This document shows positions 180 to 56,170 of a stretch of DNA of 64,000 nucleotides, piece by piece. Positions within the stretch are counted from its first letter, which is position 1. Every line of letters starts with the position of its first letter. The notes beneath the pieces were generated by a model, which saw only the letters and a program-made list of their open reading frames with translations, did no database searches and was not told where the DNA came from. The translations under genes were made by a program, and so were the position numbers. Source of the stretch: an uncultured bacterium (GTDB taxonomy: Bacteria; Armatimonadota; UBA5829); contig CAZFYZ010000001.1 in assembly GCA_964523735.1 (NCBI GenBank), positions 10,672 through 74,671 of the forward strand, given 5' to 3'.

Positions 180-192
180 CACGACTTCCGTT

Positions 193-217: not shown

Positions 218-515
218 GTCAGGCTTAGCACCGCGCGTGGCCCAGTCTATATAGCGCATGGAGGCGACGCACAATCCGGCCTCCAGAAGGAGGTGGGTGA
301 CTATGACCAGCAGTCTAACACCCGCCCCTGGAGCAGGGCGCCGGTAGTGACGACCCGGGCAAATGCTCCGCCTGGCCGCCGGTTTCGCTCGGCGGCCAGG
401 CATAGGTACACTGCAGGGGCGAAGCATTTGCTGCCAGGGGTTTGTCCGCAGAGAAGAGCCCCTGACGCCTGCCAGGGGCGTCAGAGACGCCCGCTACAAC
501 TCTATCGCAACAGCC

Positions 516-1613: not shown

Positions 1614-1614
1614 C

Positions 1615-2406: not shown

Positions 2407-2960
2407 CTCCCCAACTCCTCGTGCTTTCGTCTGAACGCTTCTCGCGCCCTGTGTAAGCGGCCTCTTGCAGCTTGCGGCGAGCATCCCAGGGCGTCGGCCA
2501 GCTCCTGGCTCGACAGGCCCTCGATATAGAACAGCACCAAAGCTGTTCTGGCGTCCGCCGGCAAGCAGTTCATCAAGTCCATGACACTGCTCTCATCGCG
2601 GCCGGTCTGCTCCGGCTCTGGAATCTGTTCCTGAATGTCTCTGCGTCGCGACTCTTTGCGCGCGTGGTCGCAGCAGATGTTGATCGCGATCCGGCAGACC
2701 CACGATCTGAAGCTCGACCTGCCCTGAAACGACCGTATTGACTTGTATGCCCGTATGAATGCCGTCTGAGTAGCATCCACGGCATCTTCGGTGGAGCCCA
2801 GGACCCGCCGGCACACGTTGTAGATGAACTCCTTGTGCCGCTGGAACAGCTGGTCGAAAGCCTCGCGTCTGCCGTCCTGCGCGAGTCTGACGAGAAGCAG
2901 ATCCGTATCCTGCTCAGCCAAGCTCAATCCGAGAGTAGTCTCCATAGGCCCCGCACTCAT
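2403..2960 (-). CDS. ECF-family RNA polymerase sigma factor (sigma-70 regions 2 and 4)
   Basis: The translation ...LLLVRLAQDGRREAFDQLFQRHKEFIYNVCRRVLGSTEDAVDATQTAFIRAYKSIRSFQGRSSFRSWVCRIAIN... shows region 2 with FxxW. The C-terminal ...ALVLFYIEGLSSQELADALGCSPQAARGRLHRAREAFRR is a region 4 HTH. The length is 185 aa, and the gene is translationally coupled to the anti-sigma gene. Confidence 0.85.
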   Translation of the reverse strand: MSAGPMETTLGLSLAEQDTDLLLVRLAQDGRREAFDQLFQRHKEFIYNVCRRVLGSTEDAVDATQTAFIRAYKSIRSFQGRSSFRSWVCRIAINICCDHARKESRRRDIQEQIPEPEQTGRDESSVMDLMNCLPADARTALVLFYIEGLSSQELADALGCSPQAARGRLHRAREAFRRKHEELGR

Positions 2961-3204
2961 GAGTGTTCAGAGTTAAGACGATGCGATGGCAGGCAAATGT
3001 TACGTGGTTCGGACGCCAACCAGTGTAATTTCGCATCTATTCTACAACGGGTGGGGACCACGCGCGCAGACAATGTTGGCGTGATGGATGGCTGCTGCGG
3101 GAGCTGCGTAGGAGAAGTGGCCGGCGGGTGCTTGGCGGCAACGTTACGGCCGGCAAGCGGGGGCTGGGATCTCTCACTTTCCGAAAGCGGCTGCACATAG
3201 ACGA

Positions 3205-3243
3205 CATCGGCTATATTGCAGTCGCATGGCAATATAGCCGATG
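3205..3243. repeat. Perfect 15-bp inverted repeat CATCGGCTATATTGC-(9 nt)-GCAATATAGCCGATG, 32 nt downstream of the giant gene's stop and upstream of the ECF sigma promoter region
   Basis: Read directly from the sequence. The stem is AT-rich for this genome. It could be an intrinsic terminator for the giant gene or a dimeric regulator operator in front of the sigma/anti-sigma operon. Confidence 0.5.
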
Positions 3244-3274
3244 GTTGATGTCGTGGCACCGACCTCAGCGGAGG

Positions 3275-6200: not shown

Positions 6201-8869
6201 GGGAAACCGAGGCTTACGTAGGCCTCGATCAGCGCCTCTGTGCCTGCAAGTTCGCGTCCCAGCGGATAGATCGCGCTCGTGCCTCCCGCGATCTCGCTCA
6301 CGACTCGCGTGTAGTACTCCTGCTGGAGGCTCTTGAACAGCGCCTGCATCTGCTGCTCAACCGCGGCTTTTCTTGCAGCGTCGGGTTCATGCATGCCGCC
6401 GGCCAGGATTGCGTCCAGCGCCCTCTGGCGAAGATTCTGGTTGCTGGTCCAGAAGGAGTAGACATAGTAGAGGTAACTGTCCCAGACATACGGGGCGGGA
6501 TTCGGGTATGCGTAGTCACCTTTGAGGACGATGTAGTCGCTGCCAATAGCGTGAACTCCGCCGTATATCTGGACCTTGCCGTTGGATGGATCTTCGTGCC
6601 ATAGCGTAACCTCTGCGGCGGGAATGGCCATCAGCATATAGGCACCAAAGTTCGGTATGACAAGCTTGTCGTACCAGTAAGGCCGCACTCGTGCGTGCAG
6701 TGTCCCGAGGTTCAGTAGGTGTTGGTTATTGAAGAGCTGGAACTGACTGAACTTGGCCAGATGTGAGGCGGTCAGATCAAACGAGGAGAGAGAGTTGACG
6801 CCGTCCTGCCTATAGGCAGTCATGCTTATGTTGGTCGGCCAGTCGGGAACCACTTGCGACGGACTGCCGTACATATCGAGCGACTCCTTCAGTACACCGT
6901 CCTTCGGAGTGAGCTGTGTCGTCTCCCGAAGCACCGTTGTCTGCAGGTCGTCGATCGCGGTCGCCATCTGCGCGGTCACGTCACCATGGTGCTGCATGAG
7001 CGCGGTCAGCAGAGGCCGGTTGCCGAAGTTCTGCAGCGCCGACTTCACGCGCTGCCCTTCCTGCGTGATCAGCGCTAGTCGGTTCGGGTCCTTGTAGGCG
7101 TAGAACCACGGGTTCTCCCTGGCAAGCTGTGCATACGCGTTTGCGGCGGTAGCCCAAGCAGTCGGGTTCGCGACACGAGTGGAGTACAACGGGTTTGTCG
7201 TCAAGCCCTGGTCGCGGGGGAACAGCCTCAGGTTGTTGACGCTGTAGCCGTAGTTGGCTTGGTTGAGCATGTTCGCGTCGGCTGCGTTAATGAATGTGAG
7301 TTCGCTCGTGCCGGTTGTAGGCCCGGCCAACAAGCTCGAGAGGACCTCGGTTGTGGCGCGAGTGTAGATAGTGGTCTCGGCAGTGACGAATGACACATCA
7401 CCCTCATAGGGCAGGTCCCAGCCGTTGTTGTTCTGCTTGTAGGCTAGCGAGCCGTCAATTGCCTGCACGAAGCTCTGTTGGTAGCCGTCCGCGAGAGCTC
7501 CGAAGAGGTTCTGGTTGAGCCGGTCGAGGTCGGACTGCAGTTCGAGCACCGAGCTTCTGATCGCGGCAAGGCTGACCTGGACATCGCCAAGCTGGTAGAG
7601 AATCTGGTCCAGACCCCTGTCGATCGTGTCGAACCGGCTGTTGAGCTGCTCGTGCATCGCGAGCATCTGCTGGCGCATTTGGACCACCTGATCCAGCAGG
7701 TCCTCGAGCTGCTGCGTGGTCTGATCTGCCCCAAACAGCCCGGCTGATACACCGAAGATGTCGGACAACCCGAGAATGCCATGGCTGATCGTCATGGGAC
7801 TTGGCTGGGCGAAGGCCAACGCTACTCTGCTTATCCCACTAGCGACCTTTGTGACATCAGCGGCATACTTGGAGATCGTCGCGGCCGTGCTCGCCTGCGA
7901 GTCGTCGCCGGCCACGATCATCACCGCAAGCTCCGCGTGGACGCGGCTGCGGATACCGTTCAGGGCCTCGACGTCCTCGGCTCTTTGAGCACGGGCGGCG
8001 TTGAGCAACTCGATGTTGGGGTTGACGAAGGAAGCCAGGTAGTTCGACTTCTGAATAGCGTCCACCTGAACCGCCGTTTGGACCAGCCCCGGCATGGAAT
8101 CAACCACTGCCCCAGCGTGCGTGATCGCGTCCTGGCAAGTGGGCTGAAAACCCTGCGCCCTCAGCGCCTCAAGCGCCGCATAGTCGGCAGGCAGCGCCGC
8201 CATGGCCGCCGCAACATCGGGATAATGCTCGGCCATAGTGGCTGGCAGCGGGAAAGGGTCGAACCCCTGCGAACTGAGGTAGTGTAGGAACGCGACCCGC
8301 ACGATCGCCTTCGATTCCCCATTGGCATCGAGTCCCAGGAAACCGTAAGTCAGCACCACGTTCAGTTCGGCGCTGTTCGCCAGGTCGAACCCCTGCTCGT
8401 TCACGAAACTCATCAACTTCGTGAGCTGAGTAGCGAGTTCATCCTTGTGCAGGCCGAGCATCTGGAGTATCTCGAGGCCGAAATCCGCCCGCATGCCCGG
8501 CTGCTTAGCCGAGCGAACGCCGAACCTCATCTCCGTCAGGAAGTCGATGGGGATCATCAGGTCGGGGTCATTCGGATTCATCGAACGAATGTGCGCGTCG
8601 AACGCGTTGGCGAAGGCGTCCAGCTGCTCGAGTGTGGCGTTGGGGTTCTCGGCCGCAGCCTGCAAAATGGAGGCGAGCACGCCGACAACCCGATGGTTCG
8701 GCGAGCGCGCCAGGTCTGTCATCACTACCTGACTCGCAGAAATCGCCTGCTTAAGCCTGAGGTAATCGGCCTGGCTTTGTACCTGGAGATCAGGCCGGGG
8801 CAGATCGGCCAGGGCCGAAGTGACCAGAATGAGGGCCGGAATGGCCAGAAGTGCAGAGTGCCTAAACAT
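3275..8869 (-). CDS. Giant secreted multidomain protein (~1865 aa): helical N-terminal region, cadherin/VCBS-like domain, Ig-like domain, parallel beta-helix, and a very long Gly-rich (GGxGGxG) low-complexity C-terminal region
   Basis: The ORF track gives 3275..9112. The likely start is the Met at 8869 (MFRHSALLAIPALILVTSALA, a signal peptide) preceded by GGAGG. The cadherin/VCBS-like motif is VLANDAPEP...GGTVIFSADGEGGFSYQPPAGFTGTDSFQYVARG. The Ig-like (I-set-like) segment is ...GRYDVLMTPAGGAPFASSTAALTVI. The beta-helix-like repeats read ...TVAISANAITQETHIEGFSIFSANATTAGGSSYGVLISNGTGNVVLSCNAIAAG. The C-terminal ~600 aa are dominated by G/A/N/Q/S with runs of GGGGGGGGGG. Confidence 0.75.
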   Translation of the reverse strand: MFRHSALLAIPALILVTSALADLPRPDLQVQSQADYLRLKQAISASQVVMTDLARSPNHRVVGVLASILQAAAENPNATLEQLDAFANAFDAHIRSMNPNDPDLMIPIDFLTEMRFGVRSAKQPGMRADFGLEILQMLGLHKDELATQLTKLMSFVNEQGFDLANSAELNVVLTYGFLGLDANGESKAIVRVAFLHYLSSQGFDPFPLPATMAEHYPDVAAAMAALPADYAALEALRAQGFQPTCQDAITHAGAVVDSMPGLVQTAVQVDAIQKSNYLASFVNPNIELLNAARAQRAEDVEALNGIRSRVHAELAVMIVAGDDSQASTAATISKYAADVTKVASGISRVALAFAQPSPMTISHGILGLSDIFGVSAGLFGADQTTQQLEDLLDQVVQMRQQMLAMHEQLNSRFDTIDRGLDQILYQLGDVQVSLAAIRSSVLELQSDLDRLNQNLFGALADGYQQSFVQAIDGSLAYKQNNNGWDLPYEGDVSFVTAETTIYTRATTEVLSSLLAGPTTGTSELTFINAADANMLNQANYGYSVNNLRLFPRDQGLTTNPLYSTRVANPTAWATAANAYAQLARENPWFYAYKDPNRLALITQEGQRVKSALQNFGNRPLLTALMQHHGDVTAQMATAIDDLQTTVLRETTQLTPKDGVLKESLDMYGSPSQVVPDWPTNISMTAYRQDGVNSLSSFDLTASHLAKFSQFQLFNNQHLLNLGTLHARVRPYWYDKLVIPNFGAYMLMAIPAAEVTLWHEDPSNGKVQIYGGVHAIGSDYIVLKGDYAYPNPAPYVWDSYLYYVYSFWTSNQNLRQRALDAILAGGMHEPDAARKAAVEQQMQALFKSLQQEYYTRVVSEIAGGTSAIYPLGRELAGTEALIEAYVSLGFPQSMDRNQLLRGLLKGDGIGLGKDGVSRVYQDAATAIPDAAPDLIGLMAERASALQTALDTAAAPDSTQSTESHPYIKYALAALADIQPGRLQLANDDHYIAAGGALAVASSAGVLANDAPEPTISPEHVGYEVVAVFDQSSQPGGQRTTAQGGTVIFSADGEGGFSYQPPAGFTGTDSFQYVARGNYEGETQNPVFSNIATAYIQVGPAVVITAQPQPFTAPVGGTAVFRIGLSGDCAIQWRKNGIPLQESGRVSGTQLDTLVISQVQIDDAGRYDVLMTPAGGAPFASSTAALTVIAPTVSGGKLLGDGSDVDIPDGIVSRIWPGFFYIGSPDRSSGIRVQGTFQTITEGSAVRIRGAMRTNDAGERYIEPTSVIPMGSGIVRPLLMAPRSIGGADLNYDTDSGRGQKGIKGGVGLNNIGLLVKVVGHVSYVDPEGEFIDIWDGPVTQPEGLPADPLGGAGIRVMLPTMPVPKAGTQVTATGISSMYLHESESLPVVLANSTSDISVMTGDGTPDRPDCLFEDTNGDGIDGDISRAVFVAPSPWGSDSNSGTLDRPVATIERGIELAAAASPRKDVYVAAGAYSPTGGTLAMQSGVSIYGLYDGTARWGRSLSNITSIIGGTVAISANAITQETHIEGFSIFSANATTAGGSSYGVLISNGTGNVVLSCNAIAAGSGAVGADGVAGPAGQAGGQGGPGGNGNCDGTPPGYGGAYGNSACGMFGGYGGQGGVAGEHNGQAGGYGAGGAYGGSGGAWGNPGKRGGDGQNGADGADGVNGAQASAIGTVADGMYLPPTSGNGSTGGNGGGGGGGGGGGAQSGFFVIDGSGNGGGGGGGGGAAGAGGSGGQGGGGSFAVFIANAVATVDSNQLTSGSGGIGGAGGAGGAGGNGGSRGYGAALDTDEIGAGGNGGVGGKGGNGGHGSGGPGGPSICIFAFNSPITVGANEFIFAPFAGGGGSLGNTGLPGISLEVYNQ

Positions 8870-9283
8870 CTCTCTCCTCCGTACGCACGTTTGCGACACG
8901 GAGAGGTGAGATACATCCCCGTGTCTCGCAATCGGAAGCTTTCGTCGCTTATCCTGGCACGTTCTGGAGGGTTCACGCTGAAGCGTGCTGGACTTCGTGC
9001 GGCGAGTATTACGGGGTCTCCAACTTCTGAGGCCAACTGGAGTGTAGCCCAGGAATGCCTGGCTGTCAAGGGGTGGGGAGGAGGCTGAGTACTTGGCGTC
9101 CCAGCATTCCACAAGCCAGAGGTCCCTTGCAGCCAGCGACCACGAATCCGGCAGGCCCCTGCGGGAACTCTGGCTTGTCCAGCACTGCTAGCTTGTTGTC
9201 AGCATCGTTCCCGCAGTATGGCTTGGGACTGCAGATCGCTCATCCGTGTGTTGGCCCTGGGGAACATGCAGGCGAAGAGGCTG

Positions 9284-11044
9284 CTACTGCGCGCTTTGGA
9301 TGCGGCGCAGCATTTCTTTGGAATCGATGTAGCCTGTCACGCGTGATGAGGTGACTTCCTTGCCTGAGGAGTTTATGAAGACGATTGTGGGCAGGCCCTT
9401 TACGTTGTACTTGCGCATGGCAGTGGTTTCGGCGCGGTCCTGCTTAGTGGCATCCACGCGCAGGCGAACGAATGACGAGGTCGCCTTGACTACCTTCTGA
9501 TCGGCGAATGGCCCGTGCTCAAGCTTCTTGCAGTAGGCGCACCAGTCGGCGGTGAAGTCGATCATAACCGGCTTGTGCTGCTTCACGGCCTGCTGGACGG
9601 CTTTCGGGGAATACGGCTGCCAGGTCATTACGGACTTCTTCGCCGTCGGCGACGCGAGTGCCACGGCAGCTACCAGGGCCAACACGCCGAATGCCTTGCC
9701 CACAGATGCCGTAGCGGGTGTCGTTTTGATCGACTTCTCGAAGAACCCGAGATAGATCCCGCCAACTATCACGATTGCCGGTATCATGTATCTCTGCCAG
9801 GCTTCCGGCGCGAGCGGCATCACGAAGTACGCCGCTGCTCCGATGAGCAGGAACCCCGCGACCTTCTTTACAGCTACCATCCACATGCCCGGAACGGGCA
9901 TTCTGGCGGAGAATGTGGCGAGCACAAAGAGCGGTGTTCCCAGCCCGATGGCTAAGGCAAAGAAGAGCACAAAGCCCATCGCCGGACTTCCCAGCTTCGC
10001 CACGTACAGGAGCAGCCCGAGCACGACCGGTCCCACGCAAGGGGCGGCCACGATCCCGAATATCAGGCCCATGAACAGCGCGCCAAGGATTCCGCTCCTG
10101 GCGGACGCCTTGCTCTCGATGAATGCCGGTGGTCTCAGCTCATACAAGCCGAACATAGACATTGCGAGCGCCAGCAGTACGAGCGCGATTCCCAGCAGCA
10201 CCACGGGGCTCTGCATCGCCGCGCCAAAGACGCCGCCTGTCGTGGCCGCGACTGCCCCGAGCGTTGAATAAGTAAGCGCGATTCCCAGCACGTATGCCGC
10301 GGCCAAAGGCATGACACGCCTGGTGCTTGACTCATGCTGCCCGCTGAAGTAGCCGACTGTCACGGGGATCATGGGATAGACACAGGGAGTAAACGCAAGC
10401 AGCAGGCCCAACCCAAAGAGCGTCAAGAGGCGCAGGGGCAGCCCCCGCTTCTCGAGGTCAGCAGCGAAGTTGTGGTCCTTGGAGGTCGCCGCCGTCTCAG
10501 CCTTTTGGTGGCCGAAGACGCTGCCGTTGATCTTCTTGACCGGCGTGCCCTTCGGAGCGATCTTCACCGTGAGCTTCGAGTTGACAGTCTCCGGCGGGAA
10601 GCACTGGTCCTCTTTGCAGCCCTGCGAATCGAACCTGGACTTGATCGTGATCGCGCCTGTCTTCGCGCCCTGGCGGACACGCCCCTTGACTTTGATCACG
10701 AACGTATCCTCGTAAACAGGCAGCTCCTGGCCTGGCGCAAGCGGCGAACTGATGCGCTTCGGCAGCGGGTAATGCACCGGATCGAGGATCAGGGCCTTCG
10801 GAGCATCTATCTTGAGCTTGGCAGGATAGAGCGAGTCCTTATGTGCGGCGCCAATGTGGTACCCGGCCGTCACTTTACCCTTGAACGCAAGCTCAAAGGA
10901 ATCCCCTGGCCGCAGCTTGTTGGCCGAGAGAAGCAGTTTACCTGTGACGATCCGCTCGGATTCTTGTGCCAAGCTCGAGCCAGCAACTGCGAAGAGCGCA
11001 AGTAACACCACTAACAAGCGAAGACTGTGTCTAATCATTTCCAT
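9284..11044 (-). CDS. dsbD: Thiol:disulfide interchange protein DsbD-like (N-terminal periplasmic domain, multi-TM core, C-terminal thioredoxin domain with WCxxC)
   Basis: A signal peptide is present. The central region has about 8 TM helices with conserved Cys residues (…AFTPCVYPMIPVT… and …VAAPCVGPVVLG…). The C-terminal thioredoxin fold carries DFTADWCAYCKKLE. Confidence 0.8.
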   Translation of the reverse strand: MEMIRHSLRLLVVLLALFAVAGSSLAQESERIVTGKLLLSANKLRPGDSFELAFKGKVTAGYHIGAAHKDSLYPAKLKIDAPKALILDPVHYPLPKRISSPLAPGQELPVYEDTFVIKVKGRVRQGAKTGAITIKSRFDSQGCKEDQCFPPETVNSKLTVKIAPKGTPVKKINGSVFGHQKAETAATSKDHNFAADLEKRGLPLRLLTLFGLGLLLAFTPCVYPMIPVTVGYFSGQHESSTRRVMPLAAAYVLGIALTYSTLGAVAATTGGVFGAAMQSPVVLLGIALVLLALAMSMFGLYELRPPAFIESKASARSGILGALFMGLIFGIVAAPCVGPVVLGLLLYVAKLGSPAMGFVLFFALAIGLGTPLFVLATFSARMPVPGMWMVAVKKVAGFLLIGAAAYFVMPLAPEAWQRYMIPAIVIVGGIYLGFFEKSIKTTPATASVGKAFGVLALVAAVALASPTAKKSVMTWQPYSPKAVQQAVKQHKPVMIDFTADWCAYCKKLEHGPFADQKVVKATSSFVRLRVDATKQDRAETTAMRKYNVKGLPTIVFINSSGKEVTSSRVTGYIDSKEMLRRIQSAQ

Positions 11045-11116
11045 TCCATGTTACCAGATCGTACGTCCATAGTCACGCGGCACCTGCTCAGTGTACGAGT
11101 TCAGTCATGTGATCAT

Positions 11117-11203
11117 GTCATTTCGAGCAGTGCGAGAAACCTGCTTCTTGCGGGGCTCTTGGCAGATGCCGAAAAGCAGATTTCTCACTGCGTTCGAAAT
11201 GAC
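11117..11203. repeat. Long imperfect hairpin (~35-bp arms: GTCATTTCGAGCAGTGCGAGAAACCTGCTTC ... GAAAAGCAGATTTCTCACTGCGTTCGAAATGAC) flanked by 17-bp direct repeats GCGGCACCTGCTCAGTG at 11077-11093 and 11226-11242
   Basis: Read directly from the sequence. It lies in the divergent intergenic region between the dsbD-like gene (minus) and the TPR protein gene (plus). Confidence 0.5.
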
Positions 11204-11487
11204 AACTCCGGAAGACTGAGCTGTTGCGGCACCTGCTCAGTGCAGGAGCTGAGTCTTGCCCGCTGTCGTCTCGAGCAGGGCGAGTTCCATAAGAGTGTGC
11301 GCGTCTTCGCGCTTGCCAGCAACGCTGCAGGCTCTGCTACTCTACATACGTCTTCTATCTCAGCCATGTTACCCAGTGGGGTCGCCTTTCCTCACCGGAC
11401 GGCTCCTTGGGCGGGCAACAGCACCTGGAATTCCGCGTCGATTACTTATATACTGATGTTCGGTAACAAACGCGATGGAGGCACTGT

Positions 11488-12954
11488 ATGGTTTGGCGGA
11501 CGCTGACCACCTTGATTCTTATTCTTGGGCTGGGCGTGAGCTGCGCGGCTCAGGAAGAGCAGAAGCAGTTGAGTGACAAGGGCATCACTATCACCTATCC
11601 TCAGGGAATGGACTCTCAGGCAAAGAAAGTGATGGATGCGATGCAGAAGTCTGTCGCGCCCGCCCTTGAGATACACAAACAGATCGTCGCGACATTGGGT
11701 GACCCGGCCGACACGGCAAAGACCATTACAGACCTCATGGGGGCGGAAGAGGCTCAGGACGCCGCGCGCGCTCGACTTGCTACGTACAAGGAGAAGTCGG
11801 AGGCGCTGATTGCCGCGTTCTCCAACATCCATCTGATGAAGAAGACCGAGGCTGCCGCCAAGGGTGGGGTGGATGCCGGGGTGATTCAGGTCCGCTACTC
11901 GATCGAGCAGGATGAGTTCAGCGTGGGCCTGGACCTAAACTCGGTGGACGCTGATCGTATCAAGCGCAGCTACTTCCCGGTGTTCGTGAACTCAGACGGG
12001 TCTATCAAGTCGCTCGACAAGCTTGGCGATCGGGCGATCGATTTTCTGGGATCGAGCAAGGCCATGTTGGCCGCGCCGATTCACGAGACCGCGGTCTACA
12101 TCATGCGGGACAAGCTCGGCCTCTACCATCCGTTCACGCGCTGGTTCCTTGAGGCGGTGAGCGGTTGGGTTACTATACGCGCGCTTTCCGGTGATCCACA
12201 GGCCGCCGCCGTCGCGAACGAGCTATTCATGCCAGGCGCTATGGCCAAGAAGCTGAGTGATAGGGTCAATCTCCTCGCATGGCCGCAGTCGGCTTACCAG
12301 AACCAGAAGGCTCCATTCACCGATCCCGCTCTGGAGGTGGCGCAGACGCAATACGCAGTCGAGGCCCTGTCGCAACTACTGGGCGGAAACCGCGGCAGAA
12401 CTCTGGCAAAGATAATCGGCGAGGTCAAACACACTTCCGATGCGGACACTGATGCGATCTGTGAGGCGATCAAGAAGATCACAGGGACTGACTTCAAGCC
12501 GGCGTTACTTGCTCGCGTGCCAGAGAAGGTCAAGGCCGGGATGGAGACGGGTGAGTCCAAGAAGCTGGTCGCGCAGGCTGAGAAGCTGGCCGCGGGCAAG
12601 AAGTGGGGAGACGCTATCTCCAAGCTCCGTCTTGCTCTCCAGATGGCTCCAACCGATGTAAACGCCAGGTTGAACCTGGCGTGGATGGACAGGGAGAAGG
12701 GCGATCGCCACGATGCCGAGATCCAGATATTCATAGTGGGGCGGCTTCTGAAGCAGCAGGACTACAAGTTCCACCTGTTTTCAACCAGCGTCGAGGGCAA
12801 CTACGTTCTCGGCAGGCTGGCGATATTCATTGGCAATCTCGAATACGCCAAGAAGTTTCTGGAGCCCGTTCTGGCGGCGAAGCCGGATCACCAGGATGCG
12901 AAACGCGCACTCGAGCAGATCAAGCATATCGAGGGAGCTGCGATGGGTCGCTGA
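11488..12954 (+). CDS. Secreted hypothetical protein with C-terminal TPR-like repeats
   Basis: The signal peptide is MVWRTLTTLILILGLGVSCAAQ. A GGAGG-like RBS lies upstream. The C-terminal region (...AISKLRLALQMAPTDVNARLNLAWMDREKGDRHDAEIQ...AKKFLEPVLAAKPDHQDAKRALEQIK) is TPR-like. No confident family assignment is possible. Confidence 0.55.
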   Translation: MVWRTLTTLILILGLGVSCAAQEEQKQLSDKGITITYPQGMDSQAKKVMDAMQKSVAPALEIHKQIVATLGDPADTAKTITDLMGAEEAQDAARARLATYKEKSEALIAAFSNIHLMKKTEAAAKGGVDAGVIQVRYSIEQDEFSVGLDLNSVDADRIKRSYFPVFVNSDGSIKSLDKLGDRAIDFLGSSKAMLAAPIHETAVYIMRDKLGLYHPFTRWFLEAVSGWVTIRALSGDPQAAAVANELFMPGAMAKKLSDRVNLLAWPQSAYQNQKAPFTDPALEVAQTQYAVEALSQLLGGNRGRTLAKIIGEVKHTSDADTDAICEAIKKITGTDFKPALLARVPEKVKAGMETGESKKLVAQAEKLAAGKKWGDAISKLRLALQMAPTDVNARLNLAWMDREKGDRHDAEIQIFIVGRLLKQQDYKFHLFSTSVEGNYVLGRLAIFIGNLEYAKKFLEPVLAAKPDHQDAKRALEQIKHIEGAAMGR

Positions 12955-13200
12955 TGGGTGAGCCGTACAAAGAACAGCCCGCCTGAGCAGGGCGGGCATC
13001 TCCAGGAGGGTTCCAACGCTTTCTCGAAGGAGAGATCAGCACTAGTAACTTCTGCAATTATCGTGCCGTAACTCTCGCAGCGGGCCGGCATCCATCAAAA
13101 CCGGCTTTTGTGCGGGCAATCGGTCGGGGTGGGAACACAGGTCCAGCTTGTCTGCGTAAGCTTACCTGGCGTACAGCCTGAAGTGGTATACTAATCTGTC

Positions 13201-15663
13201 ATGACCTCCCACAAAACCGTAGCCCGCGCGGCGGGGCTGATGATGGTGGCGATACTCGCCAGCAGGCTCCTCGGCCTTATCCGCGATATGCTCATCGCCA
13301 GCCAGTTCGGTTTGACCGGACTGGTAAGCGCCTACACCGTTTCGTTCAACCTGCCCGATTTGCTCTACTTCTTCCTCTCGAGCGGAGCGCTGTCGGGCGC
13401 CTTTATCCCGGTCTTCACCGAGCGATATCAGACCGACCGCAAGCGCGAGGCGTGGGAGATATTCTCGATCATCGCCTGCTTCATGGGCCTGGTGCTGATG
13501 ACTGTGATCGTGATCAGCGAGGTCTTCACAGAGCCGCTCGTGCGCTATCTGGCCGCACCGGGCTATGCCGACCCCAAGTATCAGGAGCTCTTCAGGCTGA
13601 TCGTTCACTTGACACGCATCATCCTGCCCTGCCAGTTGTTCTTCTTCCTGGGCGGGCTGATGATGGGCACACTCGAGTCGAGACAGGACTTCAGGGCTCG
13701 AGCGGCGGGGCCGGTAATCTACAACCTGGGGATTATCTTTGGTGTAGTGATCCTCTCCAGGTGGTTCAGCATTGCGGGGCTTGCGTGGGGAGCGATGATT
13801 GGGGCCTTCGCGGGGAACGTGGGCTACACGTTCTACTGCCTCAAGAAGTCGGGCTTCGAGTTCTACCCGAGCCTCAATCTGAGGCATCCTGGAGTCAAGA
13901 AGGTCGGGATGCTTGCGCTACCAGTTATACTCGGCCTGAGCTTGCCGCAGATCGACGTGATCATCAACCGCTGGTTTGCGACCTATGTCTCAGACATTGC
14001 CCCTGCCGCCCTGAATTATGCGAACCGGCTGATGCAGGTCCCGCTAGGGGTTTTTGCGCAAGCTGCCGGAACGGCCATTCTGCCGACGCTATCAGCCTAT
14101 GCGGCCCGAAACGCCATCGACGACCTCCGCAACAGCGTCAGCTTCGGCCTTCGCGCCATTCTTGCTATCAACATACCCGCATCGGTATTTATGGTGGTGA
14201 TGGCCGATCCGATCGTGCGCACCGTCTACATGAGCGGCGAGTTCAGCCCATCGAAAGTGCCCGCGACCTCCATCGCTCTGATCTGCTACTCGGTCGGCAT
14301 CTTCGCCTGGGCGGGGCAGGCTATAGTCGCGCGGGGCTTCTTTGCCATGCAGGACACGATAACCCCGGTCGTGCTTGGAACGGTCGCCACGATCATCTTC
14401 ATCCCGTTGAACTTCATCCTTGCCCGTGTGATGGGTCATGGGGGGCTGGCGCTGGCGACTTCCATCGCCGCGACCATTCATCTCCTTGCGCTGACAGTCT
14501 TCCTTCGGCGGCGTCTGCAAGGGCTTGAGGGAGGCAAGCTTCTTTCCAGCACCGCAAAGATCTTGATCGCTACAGCTGTGATGGGCGCGCTCTGCATTGG
14601 GGTCAGGGTAGGAATGTCCCGGACTCTCGGTACTTGGCAACTTCAGGAGGGTGATGTTCGCGACCCGACAGAGCTTGCGCTGCAGTTGGGCTGGGATCGC
14701 ACTCCACTGACGCACTACCTGGACTCGCAGATGTCCAAAGAGACAAAGGCGAAGCGTGCGAGTGCATTCAGAGCTGCATACCAGTCGTATCGGATCGAAG
14801 CCGAGGTGGAGGACTTCCTGCAGACGATCGTTTGGAGCCGCGACTTCTACGACGATGAGCGATTTGAGGATGTTTCGATCAGCGGTCGTACGCAGGATCT
14901 GGTTCATCAGCGCCCCACGAGAGGCTCTTCCTTGTGGCGCATGAACCGAGGCCTACTTGAGGCCGCCTACCCTCAAGCATTTGTCAGGATCGCCGACGTT
15001 TCCTCGGTTGCGAAGTGGTTGGAGCCTGCGGATCGGGACCATAGAGGATCAGGCGGTGATCGATGGCTGATTCAAGAAGGCGACATAGTGGATCTGGAGT
15101 CCCTCGCGCACGAGCTTGTGAACAAGGAGAATCCGGTCTCAGTGTATCTGCTTTCGGAGATGCCTCACGGCCTCCGAACTGGCCTGAGGAGCTATGTCGC
15201 CGATGCTGACGCCGCGAGGGGCCTGGACACGTCCCTTATGCATGACCTCAACAGGGTTATCCGCACAAGTCGCTTGTACTCGCCGGAGAGGTTTGGTCAG
15301 CCAACTGAAACAGGCACGACACCTGGCGATGTACGGTTGAGCGAGGAACTCCTGGTTCGAGCCAGAGTAACCCGCGGAGGCCAGGCACTACCGGAGATCA
15401 ACCGCCGTCTTCTCGAAGAAGCGTTCCCCGACCAGATCGCCAAGCGACCGATCGACCGTGTCGAAGGAAGAATGGGCTCTCTGATCACTGTCCTTGTGGC
15501 CATGGCGCTGTCCACGGTCGTCTACCTGCCTCTGCTGAAGCTGACGCGGGTGGAGGAAGTGGACGCGATCTGGGGTGGGCTCCGCCGGAAGCTTTCCAGA
15601 AGGCAGCCGATGCCACCGGACACCATTGATCAGCCCGAGACACGACCGGCCGATGAGTCTTGA
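13201..15663 (+). CDS. murJ: Lipid II flippase MurJ (MviN) with an unusual ~300-aa C-terminal extension
   Basis: The N-terminal ~520 aa form a typical MurJ/MOP fold (MTSHKTVARAAGLMMVAILASRLLGLIRDMLIASQFGLTGLVSAYTVSFNLPDLLYFFLSSGALSGAFIPVF...). The extension contains two related ~130-aa segments (LQEGDVRDPTELALQLGWDRTPLTHYL... and IQEGDIVDLESLAHELVNKENPVSVYL...) and a terminal hydrophobic helix (MGSLITVLVAMALSTVVYLPLL). Confidence 0.8.
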   Translation: MTSHKTVARAAGLMMVAILASRLLGLIRDMLIASQFGLTGLVSAYTVSFNLPDLLYFFLSSGALSGAFIPVFTERYQTDRKREAWEIFSIIACFMGLVLMTVIVISEVFTEPLVRYLAAPGYADPKYQELFRLIVHLTRIILPCQLFFFLGGLMMGTLESRQDFRARAAGPVIYNLGIIFGVVILSRWFSIAGLAWGAMIGAFAGNVGYTFYCLKKSGFEFYPSLNLRHPGVKKVGMLALPVILGLSLPQIDVIINRWFATYVSDIAPAALNYANRLMQVPLGVFAQAAGTAILPTLSAYAARNAIDDLRNSVSFGLRAILAINIPASVFMVVMADPIVRTVYMSGEFSPSKVPATSIALICYSVGIFAWAGQAIVARGFFAMQDTITPVVLGTVATIIFIPLNFILARVMGHGGLALATSIAATIHLLALTVFLRRRLQGLEGGKLLSSTAKILIATAVMGALCIGVRVGMSRTLGTWQLQEGDVRDPTELALQLGWDRTPLTHYLDSQMSKETKAKRASAFRAAYQSYRIEAEVEDFLQTIVWSRDFYDDERFEDVSISGRTQDLVHQRPTRGSSLWRMNRGLLEAAYPQAFVRIADVSSVAKWLEPADRDHRGSGGDRWLIQEGDIVDLESLAHELVNKENPVSVYLLSEMPHGLRTGLRSYVADADAARGLDTSLMHDLNRVIRTSRLYSPERFGQPTETGTTPGDVRLSEELLVRARVTRGGQALPEINRRLLEEAFPDQIAKRPIDRVEGRMGSLITVLVAMALSTVVYLPLLKLTRVEEVDAIWGGLRRKLSRRQPMPPDTIDQPETRPADES

Positions 15664-15727
15664 CGCACCGGCCTCTGCCCGCATATTATGGATGAGTAAG
15701 AGGGGAAAATCACGGAGGTCCCACCAA

Positions 15728-16981
15728 ATGACAAGAACGCAGTTCCGTCTCGCGATCCTGCTTGTGATCGCCCTGTCTGTCCTCGTCGCTCCCGCCTACT
15801 CGCAGACATTCGCTCAATGGATGCAGACGGCCGAGCAGGCCAAGGCTCGCGGGGATATGCCGGGCATGGAAAAGGCCATCCTCAAGGCTCACAGAGTGTC
15901 GCGAGGCAACGAAGGCTCGTGGCGCGGGCTTGCCTGGGCGCAGGCTCGGCAGGGAAAGCATGAGGAGTCACTCAAGAGCGCTCGGGAGAACGTGCGGCGC
16001 AACGGCGAGTGCGGCTGGTCGCTGCAGCAGCTTGCGGATTCGCTGATCTCGACCAATGACTACGCAGAGGCCCGCACCGTCCTGGCGAAAGCCGACGCTC
16101 TGCCTCAGAGCCAGATCGGTGGCGCTCAAGGAGCACTGGATTACACGAAGAACCGGCTCAAGGCATACTCCGGTGAGCGCGTCTATTCGCTGAGATGGAA
16201 GGTCCCCGCGAACGCGTTTGGCGGCAAGACATTCGAGCTGCTTATGCCCGCGATGAACACCCCGCGCCAGACGTGCACCTACACCGTGAGCGGCGCGCAG
16301 TCTTACGAACCCATCAAGGACGGCTACAGAGACCTGGTAAGGATCACTCAGCAGCCGGGTGAGCCCTGCTGGATCAACGCCACGCTCACACTCAAGGGGT
16401 TTGGAATCGGACGGAAGAAGCTTGCCGAGCTGACCTCGCAGGACTACCCCGCCGAGGCAAAGGGCTGCCTGGGCCCGTTCTATCACGGCCCATACTTCGA
16501 CCCCGCCATCCCCGAGTGCCAGGAAGCCGCGCAGAGACTGAAAGGCGCGACGCCTTATGAGACCGTGCAGAACATCCTCAACTGGATGGGCGACAACTTC
16601 ACCTATGATGGCAATGCGCAACCTGACGGCCTCAAGGGATTCCTGATCGGCAAGAAGGGCGTCTGCCACCACTGGTGCAGCGGATTCACAGCACTGTGCC
16701 GCGCGGCTGGCGTGCCTGCAGTCGTTGCGCACGGCGTTGCTCTGCCGGGTGAGAAGCGATTCAAGGAGGCCGAGGGAAGCCACGGTTGGGCCGAGGTCTA
16801 CTTCGTCGGAGCCGGCTGGGTTCCTGTTGATCCGCTTGGGCGTGAGACGCTGGCTATGTTCGGCGGCAAGAGCTACATGACCACCGACTGCGCCAACTTT
16901 ACTGAGAACGACGACCACTTCAAGTACAACTCGATCCAAGGCATACGCTACAGCGGTCGCATCGTAAGCGACACGCCGTAG
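15728..16981 (+). CDS. Secreted transglutaminase-like cysteine protease family protein with N-terminal TPR-like region
   Basis: The ORF track gives 15575..16981. The likely start is the Met at 15728 (MTRTQFRLAILLVIALSVLVAPAYSQ, a signal peptide) preceded by GGAGG. The transglutaminase-core motifs are GVCHHWCSGFTALCRAAGVPAVV and SHGWAEVYFVGAGWVPVDP (Cys-His-Asp triad context). Confidence 0.7.
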   Translation: MTRTQFRLAILLVIALSVLVAPAYSQTFAQWMQTAEQAKARGDMPGMEKAILKAHRVSRGNEGSWRGLAWAQARQGKHEESLKSARENVRRNGECGWSLQQLADSLISTNDYAEARTVLAKADALPQSQIGGAQGALDYTKNRLKAYSGERVYSLRWKVPANAFGGKTFELLMPAMNTPRQTCTYTVSGAQSYEPIKDGYRDLVRITQQPGEPCWINATLTLKGFGIGRKKLAELTSQDYPAEAKGCLGPFYHGPYFDPAIPECQEAAQRLKGATPYETVQNILNWMGDNFTYDGNAQPDGLKGFLIGKKGVCHHWCSGFTALCRAAGVPAVVAHGVALPGEKRFKEAEGSHGWAEVYFVGAGWVPVDPLGRETLAMFGGKSYMTTDCANFTENDDHFKYNSIQGIRYSGRIVSDTP

Positions 16982-17325
16982 TCTTGGAGTGCGATAAATC
17001 GCCACTTTCGTGGGCCGCGCCAGGTTTATGTGTGCGCGGCCCTTGCTCTGCCGGGCGCACGATGGCGGCATCGGTTGTCTGCGCGCTGATCGTGGTTCCC
17101 ACGAATTCTCTCTTTTCACTGCCGGAGAAGCTCTCGATGATTGACTCGGCACAACCGAAGAAGTGGGCATGCCATAGATAAGCCCCGGGTGTACAGCAAT
17201 GCGCCCATTCTGCCCAGTGGCCTGAATGCCGGATATGGGCATGTGCCATCCGTCAGGAACACCCCCCATGTACTGTGGCATGACCAGCCTCTTACGGCAT
17301 GCAAAGATGGGCATGCCATAATAAA

Positions 17326-17344
17326 CCCTATATATAATATAGGG
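17326..17344 (-). terminator. AT-rich perfect hairpin CCCTATAT-ata-ATATAGGG followed (minus strand) by TTTATTAT; candidate intrinsic terminator of the DGQHR-HEPN operon
   Basis: Read directly from the sequence. It lies about 85 nt downstream of the HEPN gene's stop on the minus strand. The local AT-rich island is conspicuous in a ~63% GC context. Confidence 0.5.
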
Positions 17345-17427
17345 TGCCCACTTGACACAGTGTACGTGAGAGTGGGCAGGTGGTTAGGGCGAGAGGGTTG
17401 CTGGAGGGAATCGCAGAGCGAGCGGAG

Positions 17428-17985
17428 TCAGAAGTCGAGGGTTGAATCAAGCTTTCGGCCAGCGGGGGGATAGCCGGCTCTGTACACAGCCCGGTATAGA
17501 GCTGAGATGGCGTCGACCACTGCACCGAGGCATCTCTCGACATCCGCGATTGAGACCGACTGATCTTCCCTCGCATGCGTAAGCGCGTTCCGCAGGTGCA
17601 GTCCTGCTTTGAGGTCAGACCACCAACCTGCGTCCTTGTCTACAGGCTTGCCAGAGTACTTGCGCACCAAGAACTCAAGCCTGTCCTCAAGCCTACGCAT
17701 CTGCAGCTTGTTTGTGAGTACGAACCTCCCCTGCTGCAGTGCGAGCTCCCTCTCAGTCAGCAACGATTGCTCGGTTTTGTCCAGGTGACCATCCGTCACG
17801 AAATCGTCGGCAACTGCGTTAACATGGGCCTCAAGTGCACAGCAGGCCTGCAGCAGGGCGGCGTGAAGGTAGGCAAGGCGACCGTCCGCCGTCGTCTCGG
17901 CCTTGGCCTTCTCAAGGAACCGTTTGGCCTCCTCAAGGAGCAGACGTGCGAAGTCGTCAAGCGTCTTCATCGTAACGGTCGACAT
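17428..17985 (-). CDS. HEPN-motif protein (predicted RNase-type effector), 185 aa
   Basis: The protein is all-alpha by composition. An Rx4-6H motif (LRNALTHARE; R-N-A-L-T-H) lies in the C-terminal third, as in HEPN domains. Its start overlaps the 3' end of the upstream DGQHR gene by 29 nt, so the two are translationally coupled. I assign the HEPN fold from the motif alone, with moderate confidence. Confidence 0.5.
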   Translation of the reverse strand: MSTVTMKTLDDFARLLLEEAKRFLEKAKAETTADGRLAYLHAALLQACCALEAHVNAVADDFVTDGHLDKTEQSLLTERELALQQGRFVLTNKLQMRRLEDRLEFLVRKYSGKPVDKDAGWWSDLKAGLHLRNALTHAREDQSVSIADVERCLGAVVDAISALYRAVYRAGYPPAGRKLDSTLDF

Positions 17986-19240
17986 TCTGGGACTTAAGCA
18001 CCTCCAGGTTCGCCTGCTTTGCGTGGTACTTCTTTATGGCCAGATCTATGAGTCCCTTAGTTATGCCTTCGCCACCTTCGGCCTGCAAGTAGAAGAGTTC
18101 AACGAGACGGCCGCGCTCCTTCGCATCCGTTCTGTACCCAAGCCCTCTGTAGTTGTCCTGATCCGTCTTGTGCCTGCCCTTTGCCAGAGCAGCCGCATTG
18201 AGCGGATCGCGAGGCCCCTTGTTGGCAAGGCCGAAATGCCGCTCCAGGCGTTTGGAATTGGAGTGGAGGACTCCGGCGACATAGGCCCACGCCGAAAGAA
18301 CCGCATAGTTGAGTGCTTTGTGAGCCGAGTCACTGTTGGGCCCCTCTTTCCCTTTTCCGAGGCTGAATGCCGCTCGCTGGACCTGCACAAGCCTAGCGAA
18401 CTCACCCCCGGCCCTCTGTAGACGCGGATCTGTCCACAAGCGAGGCTTGTTGCGCTTGAGTTCCTCCCACTCGACTGCCTCTGTGCCTGAGCTGCAGATT
18501 GATGGAGTGGTTTCTGTGCGATCGAAGTCTCTAGCCGCTATATTGACGCCGCTGTAGTAGTTGAGGATAAATGTACGTGCGGCACGCACGGTGACAGGGT
18601 CTCCGCGCTGGCGCTTATCAGCGAAGTCCTGACCGTGCTGGAGTAGCCCAACCTCCTGGCACCATTGCCGAAGTTCAGGGCCGAAAACTGTCTCCTGCAT
18701 CCTGTCGTAGAGGTCGGGGGAGACCGCTATATTCGTGTTTGATATAAGCTGCACGTCAAGCCTTTGCTCCGTGTCTAGGTCGAAGTACACTTTTATCCCG
18801 TGGAGCTCGTCAACGTGTTCTCTTACCGCAAGCTTGATCGCTTCAAACCTGTGCTGGCCACCGATTACCTTCAGCGGACGCTCGGAGTTGTAGTCAAGTA
18901 CGAATTCACACACGATATTGCTGAACGTTCTCCCCGCCGCTGCATCCTTCTTCATGGCCTTGAATGCAGAATGGTCGAGCAGTATTTCCCGGTTGGCTCT
19001 GTACTCCAGCTGTTCCTCGGGGTCGAGCGGCACGTCGGTCGTGGCGGAGGCGATCAGCTTACTGCCGAAGACGTGGCACTCGACATAAACGGCTTTGGTG
19101 CAGGAGTCAGTCAGTAGATGCAAACGCTCACGCTCTATCGGCTCAAACTGGGCCACGAACTGCTCGATAAGGGGACGCAGTTTGGCAACGCGTTCTTCGG
19201 ACAGAGGCGTAGCAGCAACGAAGTCAGAGAGAGCACCCAT
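17957..19240 (-). CDS. ParB/Srx-fold DGQHR-type domain protein (DndB / DUF262-like), 427 aa
   Basis: The ORF track gives 17957..19273 with a GTG start. The likely start is the ATG at 19240 (MGALSDFVAATPLSEERVAKL...) with AGGAGG 8 nt upstream. The motif KVIGGQHRFEAIKLAV matches the DGQHR (DndB) / DGQQR (DUF262, GmrSD N-domain) signature of the ParB/sulfiredoxin superfamily. The C-terminal ~250 aa are unassigned. Confidence 0.6.
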   Translation of the reverse strand: MGALSDFVAATPLSEERVAKLRPLIEQFVAQFEPIERERLHLLTDSCTKAVYVECHVFGSKLIASATTDVPLDPEEQLEYRANREILLDHSAFKAMKKDAAAGRTFSNIVCEFVLDYNSERPLKVIGGQHRFEAIKLAVREHVDELHGIKVYFDLDTEQRLDVQLISNTNIAVSPDLYDRMQETVFGPELRQWCQEVGLLQHGQDFADKRQRGDPVTVRAARTFILNYYSGVNIAARDFDRTETTPSICSSGTEAVEWEELKRNKPRLWTDPRLQRAGGEFARLVQVQRAAFSLGKGKEGPNSDSAHKALNYAVLSAWAYVAGVLHSNSKRLERHFGLANKGPRDPLNAAALAKGRHKTDQDNYRGLGYRTDAKERGRLVELFYLQAEGGEGITKGLIDLAIKKYHAKQANLEVLKSQNVDRYDEDA

Positions 19241-19457
19241 ACCGAAGACCTCCTGTGAACGACAGCCGGACACTCAGTCCAACAGCAGAGATTATACGCG
19301 ACGCACTTACCACCGGTCAAATCGCTCACCATCATGGCCAGACCGGGCACTCCCTCCGAACCCCCTCCCCTTCATTGTGGCATGGCGCACGGCCGGTCGA
19401 CCGCTGTAGTGACATTCAGAGAAGGGGCGAGGTCTCCGGCTACGATGCCGAAGCAAT

Positions 19458-20651
19458 CTATCCGCGCGTGGCGGCGTATCTCGCACGCGTGCGGCGGCTG
19501 ACCCAGCTTCGGGCTGTGAGCGGGGGTAGGGCGTGGCGGCGGTGGATGGGGTCTGTCTCAAGTTCAGGCTCCACTGGCTGGCCTCTGAATCGACGCGACG
19601 AGTCCTGGTTGGATGCCCGGGCAAACGGGCGCATTACAGTCACGATCAGCAGGTATCCTGCCAGGAGGATCGCAGCGAAGGCGAGGTTTGAGGAGAAGCC
19701 ATCATCAGCGTCAGGCAGCGGAGCCAGATAAGCAGCGACGTACGACGGGCAGAACTTCGTTACCCCAGGAGACAGGAGAGCGCACTGACTGTCATCGGAT
19801 GACACGGCCTGGGATATCGAGAGTATCGCGGCTTCGTAGGCACGGTCCTTCGACGTGTAGGGTACGTTGCAGGGAGTCTCCAGCAGGAATGCGGCGTGAC
19901 CAAGGGTCGTGTACCTGCGGTGGAACAGCCTCGGGTTTCCATCAGGCCTGCACTTGTGCGCCAGAAGCCCCGATCGGCTCTCGACCTTCTTCGCCAGCAG
20001 CATCATCGCATGAGCCCGACTGTCCGAGATGGTTGGCGCGACCTCGATCTCATTGCCCGCGGTGTTGGTGGGGCCGGTCCATTCGTGGGCATCGATCAGC
20101 ACGTGAGGCCTCCATGTCCGAATCGTCCGATCGACGAAGACGGCTTCCGGAGCCTTCAGAGTCGCCCAATCCCGGTTGATATCGATCCCCTGCGCGTTTA
20201 GCCGCTGCTTTTCGGCAAACCCGTCGGGGTTGGCCACCGGTACGACAATGAACACACACTTCTTCAGCAGCTCAGGCTCCGATCCCGACGCGAGCTTTCC
20301 GCACAGCGACAGCACCGACTCAACCGGATTGCCCTCATCTCCGTGCTGCCCGGCCACGATCATAACTCGGGTCTTTCCCTCGGATCCGATCGACAGGTCG
20401 GAGATCACAAACGCTGGTATCGCCCGACCCTCGCCCGATTTGCCAAAGGCGACCAGACGGGCATTTGCAGAGTCGGACAGCGCCCGCACGCGAAGCATGG
20501 CCGCATCGTAGGGGTTAGGGGTTGGGGGGTGGGAGTTGGGGGACGCGTGGCTAGCGGCGCGAGCCAATGCCAGGAGTTGCAGCGAGGATAGAATGAGCAC
20601 GAGGGCCTTCCCTAGCCCCCAAGACCCAGCTCCTAACCCCTTCTGCTTCAT
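19458..20651 (-). CDS. Secreted zinc carboxypeptidase, peptidase M14 family (succinylglutamate desuccinylase/aspartoacylase-like fold)
   Basis: The ORF track gives 19458..20786. The likely start is the ATG at 20651 (MKQKGLGAGSWGLGKALVLILSSLQLLALARAA, a signal peptide), which overlaps the TGA of the upstream flagellar ORF (ATGA). The M14 motifs are VMIVAGQHGDEGNPVE (HxxE zinc ligands) and HVLIDAHEW. Confidence 0.7.
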   Translation of the reverse strand: MKQKGLGAGSWGLGKALVLILSSLQLLALARAASHASPNSHPPTPNPYDAAMLRVRALSDSANARLVAFGKSGEGRAIPAFVISDLSIGSEGKTRVMIVAGQHGDEGNPVESVLSLCGKLASGSEPELLKKCVFIVVPVANPDGFAEKQRLNAQGIDINRDWATLKAPEAVFVDRTIRTWRPHVLIDAHEWTGPTNTAGNEIEVAPTISDSRAHAMMLLAKKVESRSGLLAHKCRPDGNPRLFHRRYTTLGHAAFLLETPCNVPYTSKDRAYEAAILSISQAVSSDDSQCALLSPGVTKFCPSYVAAYLAPLPDADDGFSSNLAFAAILLAGYLLIVTVMRPFARASNQDSSRRFRGQPVEPELETDPIHRRHALPPLTARSWVSRRTRARYAATRG

Positions 20652-29202: not shown

Positions 29203-29326
29203 ATGGCTTACCTACTGGGGCTGTTGCGGAGCTGTAGCGGGCGTCTCTGACGCCCCTGGGAGGCGTCGGAGACGCCTGCTACAACTGCGGATCACAGAAG
29301 AGCGATCTATCGCAACTGCCTCCTAC

Positions 29327-56116: not shown

Positions 56117-56170
56117 TGCTCGCGGGCGAAGGGAAAGGGAATGCGCTGCATTCCCCAGGGAGGGAAAGCG

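Follow-up and report, generated by a model that had tools for sequence, protein, structure and literature searches.

The locus described here lies in a 64-kb stretch of DNA from an uncultured bacterium (hereafter the window) and consists of a convergent intergenic gap together with the small gene islet that borders it. The gap measures 446 bp from stop codon to stop codon (16982-17427) and separates a transglutaminase/TPR gene on the + strand from a HEPN-like gene on the - strand, which bears out the length of ~445 bp given in a first-pass annotation of this DNA. All of the motifs and palindromes which that annotation had listed in the gap were recovered, with offsets of 0-2 nt; for instance, AGTGGGCA is located at 17162-17169 and had been placed at 17161-17168. 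The G+C content of the window, previously put at ~63%, amounts to 59.9%.

The window was compared with a sister lineage of ~88% nucleotide identity, represented by the Logan contigs L090, L092 and L093 of sample ERR13624443. These relatives were found through cluster look-ups, which returned protein variants with at least 90% identity from this one other sample. L090 covers the transglutaminase side of the locus, L092 covers the flagellin-FliD-FliS-FliT-M14 side, and L093 corresponds to window positions 55208-64000. The window's own strain is represented by the Logan contigs L001 (ending at 17401) and L091 (17415-18725) of sample SRR8925774, both 100% identical to the window. The features of the locus, including four units termed U1-U4, are given below.

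15728-16981, + strand: transglutaminase-core/TPR gene (P0001, 417 aa; Pfam Transglut_core, E=2e-20), the left flank
17012-17042, + strand: GC-rich hairpin GGGCCGCGC-13-GCGCGGCCC, an inverted repeat of 9 nt, 100% complementary, just past the transglutaminase stop codon
17058-17160, + strand: putative pseudogene stump, the decayed 3' end of the last ABC permease gene, by similarity to L090
17160-17233, + strand: unit U1, apparently a decayed U3-type copy, with the box AGTGGGCATGCCATAG intact, the AT hairpin lost and the region of the second hairpin recognisable
17234-17307, + strand: unit U2, apparently a copy of the U4-type border, ATGGGCATGTGCCAT ... TGTACTGTGGCATG
17304-17378, no strand assigned: unit U3, a conserved element of 75 nt with the box TGGGCATGCCATA (17308-17320), hairpin 1 (17325-17345) and hairpin 2 (17345-17378)
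17379-17427, no strand assigned: boundary of U3 with the islet, and the islet's 3' tail; similarity to L090 stops at about 17378-17384
17428-17970, - strand: HEPN-like gene, 180 aa (185 aa from an upstream ATG at 17985)
17957-19240, - strand: ParB/Srx-fold 'GGQHR' (DGQHR-like) gene, 427 aa (P0077)
19291-19320, - strand: sigma-70-like islet promoter (predicted), TTGACC-18-TATAAT, the top promoter-like candidate of window 1-20000 (11/12 matches)
19334-19395, + strand: unit U4, the islet border on the M14-peptidase side, with a degenerate box CCGGGCAC ... ATTGTGGCATGG in the same orientation as U1-U3
62796-62808, + strand: third exact copy of GGGCATGCCAT (62797-62807), placed between a stop codon and a 26-nt hairpin, 6 nt from each

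Motif content of the gap

The gap contains a direct repeat of the 13-nt box TGGGCATGCCATA, whose two copies (17164-17176 and 17308-17320) are identical at 13/13 positions and lie 144 nt apart, as well as a box variant, ATGGGCATGTGCCAT, at 17235-17249. The sequence AGTGGGCA occurs a second time at 17371-17378, as the right arm of the inverted repeat TGCCCACT-18-AGTGGGCA that spans 17345-17378. The adjoining AT hairpin, ACCCTATAT-ata-ATATAGGGT at 17325-17345, is longer than first noted.

The first-pass annotation had proposed counting the motif as a check, and the count set the exact sequence well above chance: three occurrences of GGGCATGCCAT were present in the 64-kb window against 0.03 expected, and none of 100 shuffled sequences reached three. 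With one mismatch allowed, four were found against 1.96 expected in the window, which is not significant, and the 8-nt palindromic core GGCATGCC by itself was not enriched (3 against 2.2 expected). The half-site GGCATG/CATGCC reaches seven per 200 bp in the gap against 0.13 expected, forming the densest such cluster of the window, and GGCATG occurs five times within 160 nt.

A - strand open reading frame (ORF) at 17116-17358 (67-80 aa) was considered as a small protein gene and rejected, since the relative lacks it and gene calling on L001 placed no gene at this position. This ORF runs through all three boxes, so that it encodes repeated MACP-type peptides, and it is probably not a gene.

A conserved box and double hairpin

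U3 (17304-17377) was 88% identical to L090 4496-4570, and the non-coding DNA around it was not alignable to that contig. No changes were observed in the box or in hairpin 1, and hairpin 2 has five in its loop. The closing pair of this hairpin is U-A in one lineage and C-G in the other, which represents a compensatory change. The element also folds more stably than shuffled sequences, with z values of -3.7 on the + strand and -3.2 on the - strand. When read on the - strand, hairpin 1 (ACCCTATAT-TAT-ATATAGGGT) is followed by TTTATTAT, giving the stem and U-rich tract of a terminator-like structure; no such intrinsic terminator was found on the + strand.

From its sequence, we infer that U3 is a terminator module of the convergent transcription units. 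It resembles intrinsic and bidirectional terminators in placing two stable hairpins between convergent units, with a U-rich tract after hairpin 1 on the - strand, and in keeping its stems while its loops vary. It differs from them in having no U-tract on the + strand, in the unusually AT-rich stem of hairpin 1, and in the conserved 13-nt box beside the hairpins, which is not needed for termination.

A putative remnant of an ABC-transporter operon

The left part of the gap appears to have a different origin. In L090, the transglutaminase gene is followed by 48 nt, an ABC sugar-transporter operon of ~3 kb (SBP_bac_1 plus two BPD_transp_1 genes), 30 nt and the relative's counterpart of U3, U3'. 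The transglutaminase DNA itself is 88.6% identical to L090 76-1378, and its 417-aa product is identical on L001. The ABC sugar-transporter operon is absent from the window. At its place, positions 17058-17094 matched L090 4361-4397 at 29/37 positions, with a score of 21 against 12.3+-1.4 (maximum 18) for shuffled sequences, or z about 6. The frame TMAASVVCALIVV matched the permease sequence TMAASVVCTLPVI at residues 251-270 of 284 (BLASTP E=8e-4), and in the global alignment to L090 this match was collinear with the box that follows it. The similarity to the intact orthologue at the syntenic position is therefore both significant and collinear.

Judged by these alignments, roughly 17058-17160 is a permease pseudogene stump, and a ~3-kb deletion would account in part for the unusual length of the gap. 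The stump takes up about a quarter of the gap and had been overlooked in the first-pass annotation. A second relative (74% identical) carries a + strand gene 54 nt past the transglutaminase stop codon. Because the stump is present and two outgroups keep a gene at this position, the event would be a deletion in the window lineage. As in gene remnants left by operon deletions, the window keeps a collinear but decayed match to the 3' terminus of a permease gene that is intact in the sister lineage; the difference is that only ~40-100 nt survive and that the left end point of the deletion was not located. The GC-rich hairpin at 17012-17042 is likely the terminator or attenuator of the transglutaminase gene, as predicted from its structure and position. 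A different hairpin occupies the same place in L090.

Duplicated borders as the probable source of the repeated motif

Relative to L090, the window holds 144 bp of extra DNA (17164-17307), bounded by the 13-nt direct repeat and lying within U1 and U2. The box of U1 is identical at 16/16 positions and the rest of the unit at 49%; outside the box, the similarity of U1 to U3' reached z=5.1. U2 is of another type. Positions 17227-17282 aligned to the L092 tail in reverse complement with a score of 21 (z=7.6), and U2 matched U4 with z=5.5 for the window copy and z=7.2 for the copy in L092, which is the better preserved of the two (AGATGGGCAT...TGTACTGTGGCATG).

When the relative's two borders were joined (U3'+U4'), 17160-17307 aligned to them collinearly and over its full length, with 102 identical positions and z=13. 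The score of U1+U2 against this joined sequence was 36.4, compared with 23.0 for an order-swapped control. All of the box-type sequences share one orientation. The collinearity with the relative's joined borders therefore indicates that the apparent motif array is a duplicate of the islet borders, in which both borders of the variable segment are present in decayed form with nothing between them, next to the interrupted copy U3-islet-U4. One local duplication accounts for two of the three exact copies of GGGCATGCCAT, so that only two occurrences are independent.

The sequence TGGGCA starts at 17164, 17236, 17308 and 17373, with spacings of 72, 72 and 65 nt. A degenerate tandem triplication of one 72-nt unit was considered for this pattern and rejected. 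Tandem Repeats Finder reported no array in the gap (score at least 30), and outside the box neither U1 and U2 (z=0.6) nor U1 and U3 (z=0.4) resembled each other. Given that U1 and U2 are different unit types, the equal spacing of 72 nt is probably accidental. The box itself is intact even in the decayed copy, which makes it a probable recognition sequence, with recombination at the locus as the most plausible role.

The ParB-like/HEPN-like islet

The islet extends from about 17379/17402 to 19333 (~1.95 kb). On its right, L092 aligns with window 27361-19345 at 88.4% identity, so that the match reaches 113 nt beyond the M14 stop codon; past about 19334-19345 the two sequences diverge. An alignment to relatives, as the first-pass annotation had advised, thus placed the ends of the segment: the ParB-like/HEPN-like pair is missing at both orthologous borders of the sister lineage. 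The third-position G+C content (GC3) of the islet genes is 0.65-0.68, compared with 0.71-0.78 in the neighbouring genes.

The HEPN-like protein carries RNALTH, and the R, N and H residues of the RNxxxH motif are at least 90% conserved in 62 homologues. Its 427-aa neighbour has a ParB/Srx fold and a (D/G)GQHR-type motif, GGQHR. Neither protein was convincingly matched by Pfam, NCBIfam or PADLOC models; the HEPN-like protein had no Pfam or NCBIfam match, and PADLOC gave a weak Cas13-ApeA hit (E=1e-3). The module is widespread and conserved at 51-68% identity, with >1500 homologues, and the HEPN-like gene follows the ParB-like gene in ~70/80 sampled loci from many phyla at 51-64% identity, a distribution that points to a mobile gene pair. 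Associations of ParB-like and HEPN genes have been described in comparative defence-gene surveys (Makarova 2013, PMC3632139; Anantharaman 2013, PMC3710099). The islet, with its GGQHR protein and conserved Rx4H protein, is similar to the ParB-like (DGQHR/DUF262) plus HEPN modules predicted to act in defence or abortive infection (PMC3632139, PMC3710099); it differs in being two separate genes of a family unmatched by current Pfam, NCBIfam and PADLOC models. The pair may represent an uncatalogued defence or toxin module.

The motif array does not appear to belong to this module, as nhmmer and blastn-short searches across 80 module loci found nothing similar. In 61-63 other genomes, the regions downstream of the module were unrelated and its ends were not conserved, and these genomes showed no excess of direct repeats flanking it (mean 8.26 against 7.92 nt). 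As a candidate for terminal inverted repeats, an 11/13 match between GGTGGTTAGGGCG (17379) and the promoter spacer near 19300 was also considered; it was no better than many chance pairs nearby and was rejected. No match was found among viral contigs or plasmids that would indicate a phage or plasmid origin.

The own-strain contigs break 23 nt after U3 (17401), resume 13 nt further on (17415) and break again in the ParB-like gene (18725); the flanking contig L001 is 6.2 kb long. These breaks at the islet may reflect lower coverage or strain heterogeneity. Past the M14-side border, L092 8020-8113 consists of tandem units of ~38 nt (GAGCAACACACCTTGGGCCAACCGCC..GTTGCG), and a similar GTTGCGAGAGCAACATCATCTTGAGC stretch occurs in the tail of L090 (4660-4720). 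The tandem unit is absent from the window.

The motif copy at 62796-62808

The first-pass annotation had linked the gap to a recurrence of the motif at 62796-62808. The motif is indeed present there in front of a hairpin; the link to the gap proved weak. In L093, the 26-nt hairpin is 100% conserved and an unrelated stretch of 26 nt stands in place of the motif, and for this reason the copy at 62797 was rejected as evidence of a motif family. The motif was also absent from L092, L093 and 78/80 unrelated loci. This copy is probably coincidental, or at least unconstrained, and would not be part of the feature in the gap. The conserved hairpin itself, GTTTCGGGGTCACCCTGACCCGAAAC (window 62814-62839, L093 about 7590-7615), lies between an S-methyltransferase gene and a DedA-like gene.

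Elsewhere in the window, a MurJ homologue of 820 aa is encoded at 13201-15663. In a Pfam scan, the MurJ family covered residues 32-476 and left a C-terminal extension of ~340 aa without a family match.

A probable composite origin of the gap

Taken together, these results make it reasonably probable that the gap is a composite, in which rearrangements at a variable locus have brought together the scar of a deletion, a conserved double hairpin resembling a terminator and a duplicate of the islet borders. On balance, we regard it neither as a dedicated RNA gene nor as a designed repeat array. The homologies, the presence or absence of each segment, the conservation pattern and the compensatory pair are direct readings of the alignments; from them we infer the direction of the events, namely deletion, duplication and insertion, as well as the terminator role of U3 and any role of the box.

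In the proposed history, U3 together with U4 would have formed the shared 3' region of two convergent operons, the ABC operon and the flagellar/M14 operon. The hairpins of U3 would terminate transcription, and a transcript of the - strand would carry hairpin 2, hairpin 1 and the U-rich tract in this order. In the window lineage, the ~3-kb ABC operon would then have been deleted, leaving ~100 bp of the permease 3' end. Cargo DNA, a ~1.95-kb cassette with a promoter, the GGQHR gene and the HEPN-like gene that was presumably acquired horizontally, may have been inserted between U3 and U4, where it would separate the flagellar/M14 operon's stop codon from the terminator of that operon. The border sequence would further have been duplicated to give U1-U2, and GGGCATGCCAT would be repeated because of this duplication.

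Several observations weigh against this composite origin. Hairpin 1 is without a canonical U-tract on the + strand, and the - strand tail in L090, TTGCTATG, is poorer in this respect and falls below the threshold of the terminator scan. The box is kept at 16/16 positions inside a U1 that is otherwise 49% identical, which a passive scar alone does not explain. A second locus with the exact 11-mer within 64 kb has a probability of p~0.03 and was left as coincidence. The comparison draws on a single close lineage and on short Logan contigs only. Both L090 and L092 end in short repeats, so the DNA between U3' and U4' was not read through, and the own-strain Logan contigs do not span 17402-17414, so that the adjacency of U3 and the islet is taken from the metagenome-assembled genome (MAG) only. 

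More distant genomes did not extend the comparison. No orthologous locus was found in GTDB representative genomes queried with the transglutaminase protein, and a metagenome scan yielded only relatives of 41-55%. The nearest named homologues came from Armatimonadota. There was no synteny in homologues of ~48% identity, and a 75%-identical permease homologue was also located in a different context. Exact-protein look-ups returned no record for the 185-aa HEPN, 427-aa ParB-like and 397-aa M14-peptidase proteins.

Alternative explanations

The intact box also fits an active attachment or insertion site, in which the TGGGCA(T) box is the crossover core and a trans-acting enzyme inserts or exchanges cassettes that lack a recombinase of their own, including the ParB-like/HEPN pair. 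The box copies flanking the cargo would then be attL/attR-like sequences or target duplications, and U1-U2 a preserved empty site. The cargo is indeed flanked by same-orientation boxes, which in the window are AGTGGGCA (17371) and CCGGGCAC (about 19343) and in L090 and L092 are AGTGGGCG and GATGGGCAT. U1-U2 is uninterrupted with a single box at the joint, the window and its relative differ in the cargo between the same borders, and the palindromic core GGCATGCC would suit a DNA-binding protein acting as a dimer; that the decayed copy keeps the box at 16/16 positions points the same way. Known attL/attR repeats and the integration hot spots of defence cassettes share with this locus the related, same-orientation sequences around the islet, the empty-like copy with joined borders, and the different cargo of a sister lineage between the same borders. 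They differ from it in that the islet has no integrase, tRNA gene or transposase, and in that the border duplicate sits to one side of the islet and is not symmetric around it. U2/U4 and box-type motifs flank U3 and the islet together, and the core common to the exact junctions is just ~5-6 nt (GGGCA), which is statistically weak. Only ParB-like and HEPN-like genes were found between the borders, with no integrase or transposase in or beside the islet; no significant inverted repeats occur at its ends, the 61-63 other genomes displayed neither an excess of flanking direct repeats nor conserved module ends, and the pattern is known from two lineages only. The att-like or mobile-element remnant of the first-pass annotation thus stands in part: the islet is absent at both orthologous borders, the borders bear the box, and the extra copies would be a duplicate of these borders, while a recombinase or transposase in the segment, significant terminal inverted repeats and a dispersed family in the ~90 kb of lineage DNA readable for that search were not found. 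We therefore consider an active site unlikely. More doubtful still is a more specific proposal, in which the TGGGCAT box by the double hairpin would be the core of an insertion hot spot not described before, in an Armatimonadota-like lineage without cultured members. A factor acting in trans would place or swap small cassettes, the widely distributed ParB-like/HEPN module among them, between the flagellar/M14 operon's stop codon and terminator, and the extra copies would be fossil attachment sites.

Conservation of the box amid decayed surroundings could likewise be read as a protein-binding array, in which boxes with the core GGCATGCC serve as operator- or iteron-like sites for a regulator, a nucleoid protein or a ParB-like protein (parS- or centromere-like). 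The three boxes with their exact 72-nt spacing, the additional GGCATG half-sites and the ParB/Srx fold of the neighbouring gene product favour such an array. The relative, however, has the box and U3 without a ParB-like gene at the locus, nothing similar occurs near the module in other genomes, U1 and U2 belong to different unit types (U3-type and U4-type) and are not iteron-like, and the site is located at the 3' ends of genes, with no promoter there; an array of this kind is improbable. A structured small RNA or 3' untranslated region element, comprising 17300-17385 or the whole array, ranks below it and is very doubtful. The box, which is identical to the 3' arm of hairpin 2, would make possible an alternative pairing with the 5' arm TGCCCACT, and AAGTGGGCA (17161-17169) is indeed complementary to TGCCCACTT (17345-17353) at 9/9 positions. 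The stable folding on both strands, the compensatory pair and the concentration of substitutions in the loop would suit an RNA, although the covariation is minimal, coming from two sequences, and of the two pairings, the compensatory change speaks for hairpin 2. Rfam gave no match in the whole window at the gathering score and none in 16900-17500 even at E<=1, and no sigma-70 or sigma-54 promoter-like site was found in 16800-17700, where a manual check of sigma-54 spacing was also negative. The small non-coding RNA suggested in the first-pass annotation is therefore not upheld, as the conserved part is only 75 nt (17304-17378) and is adequately explained by two hairpins resembling a terminator module. 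Least probable, to the point of being remote, is a dispersed miniature repeat of the repetitive extragenic palindromic (REP), bacterial interspersed mosaic element (BIME) or miniature inverted-repeat transposable element (MITE) kind, with box and hairpin forming a genome-wide family clustered in the gap. The layout of motif, 5/6 nt and hairpin recurs at 62797, and the genome carries another REP-like family of the GTAG-plus-palindrome type. Against this, the 64 kb of the window hold only two loci and the 20 kb of L092 and L093 hold none, the relative has kept the hairpin at 62797 but not the motif, the hairpins of the two loci are unrelated, and no target-site duplications or terminal repeats were found. 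The gap shares with REP/BIME clusters its short, hairpin-bearing and partly tandem units at the 3' ends of genes, and departs from them in that these units are confined to one or at most two loci, have no GTAG-type head and are of two unrelated kinds.

The other REP-like family is a separate dispersed repeat, GCGTCAGAGACGCCCGCTACA(ACTCTATCGCAAC), with three copies in the window (458-515, 29229-29290) where 0 were expected. Both orientations occur, and the repeat is also present at L090 1-41. On the other strand it reads GTAG and then the palindrome GGCGTCTCTGACGCC, an arrangement typical of the REP elements that RAYT transposases recognise.

Significance of the locus

The composite origin favoured above implies that a conspicuous and statistically real cluster of motifs and palindromes can arise from ordinary genome dynamics, with no need for a new RNA or a binding array. 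The comparison also fixes the limits of a small ParB-like/HEPN cassette, apparently acquired horizontally, at about 17379/17402 to 19333. The site is a place where two sister lineages hold different cargo between the same two short borders, and the main interest of the gap is that it is a possible insertion hot spot. If the box were indeed a recombination core, the locus would offer a compact model for the way in which defence cassettes without a recombinase are placed between a gene and its terminator.

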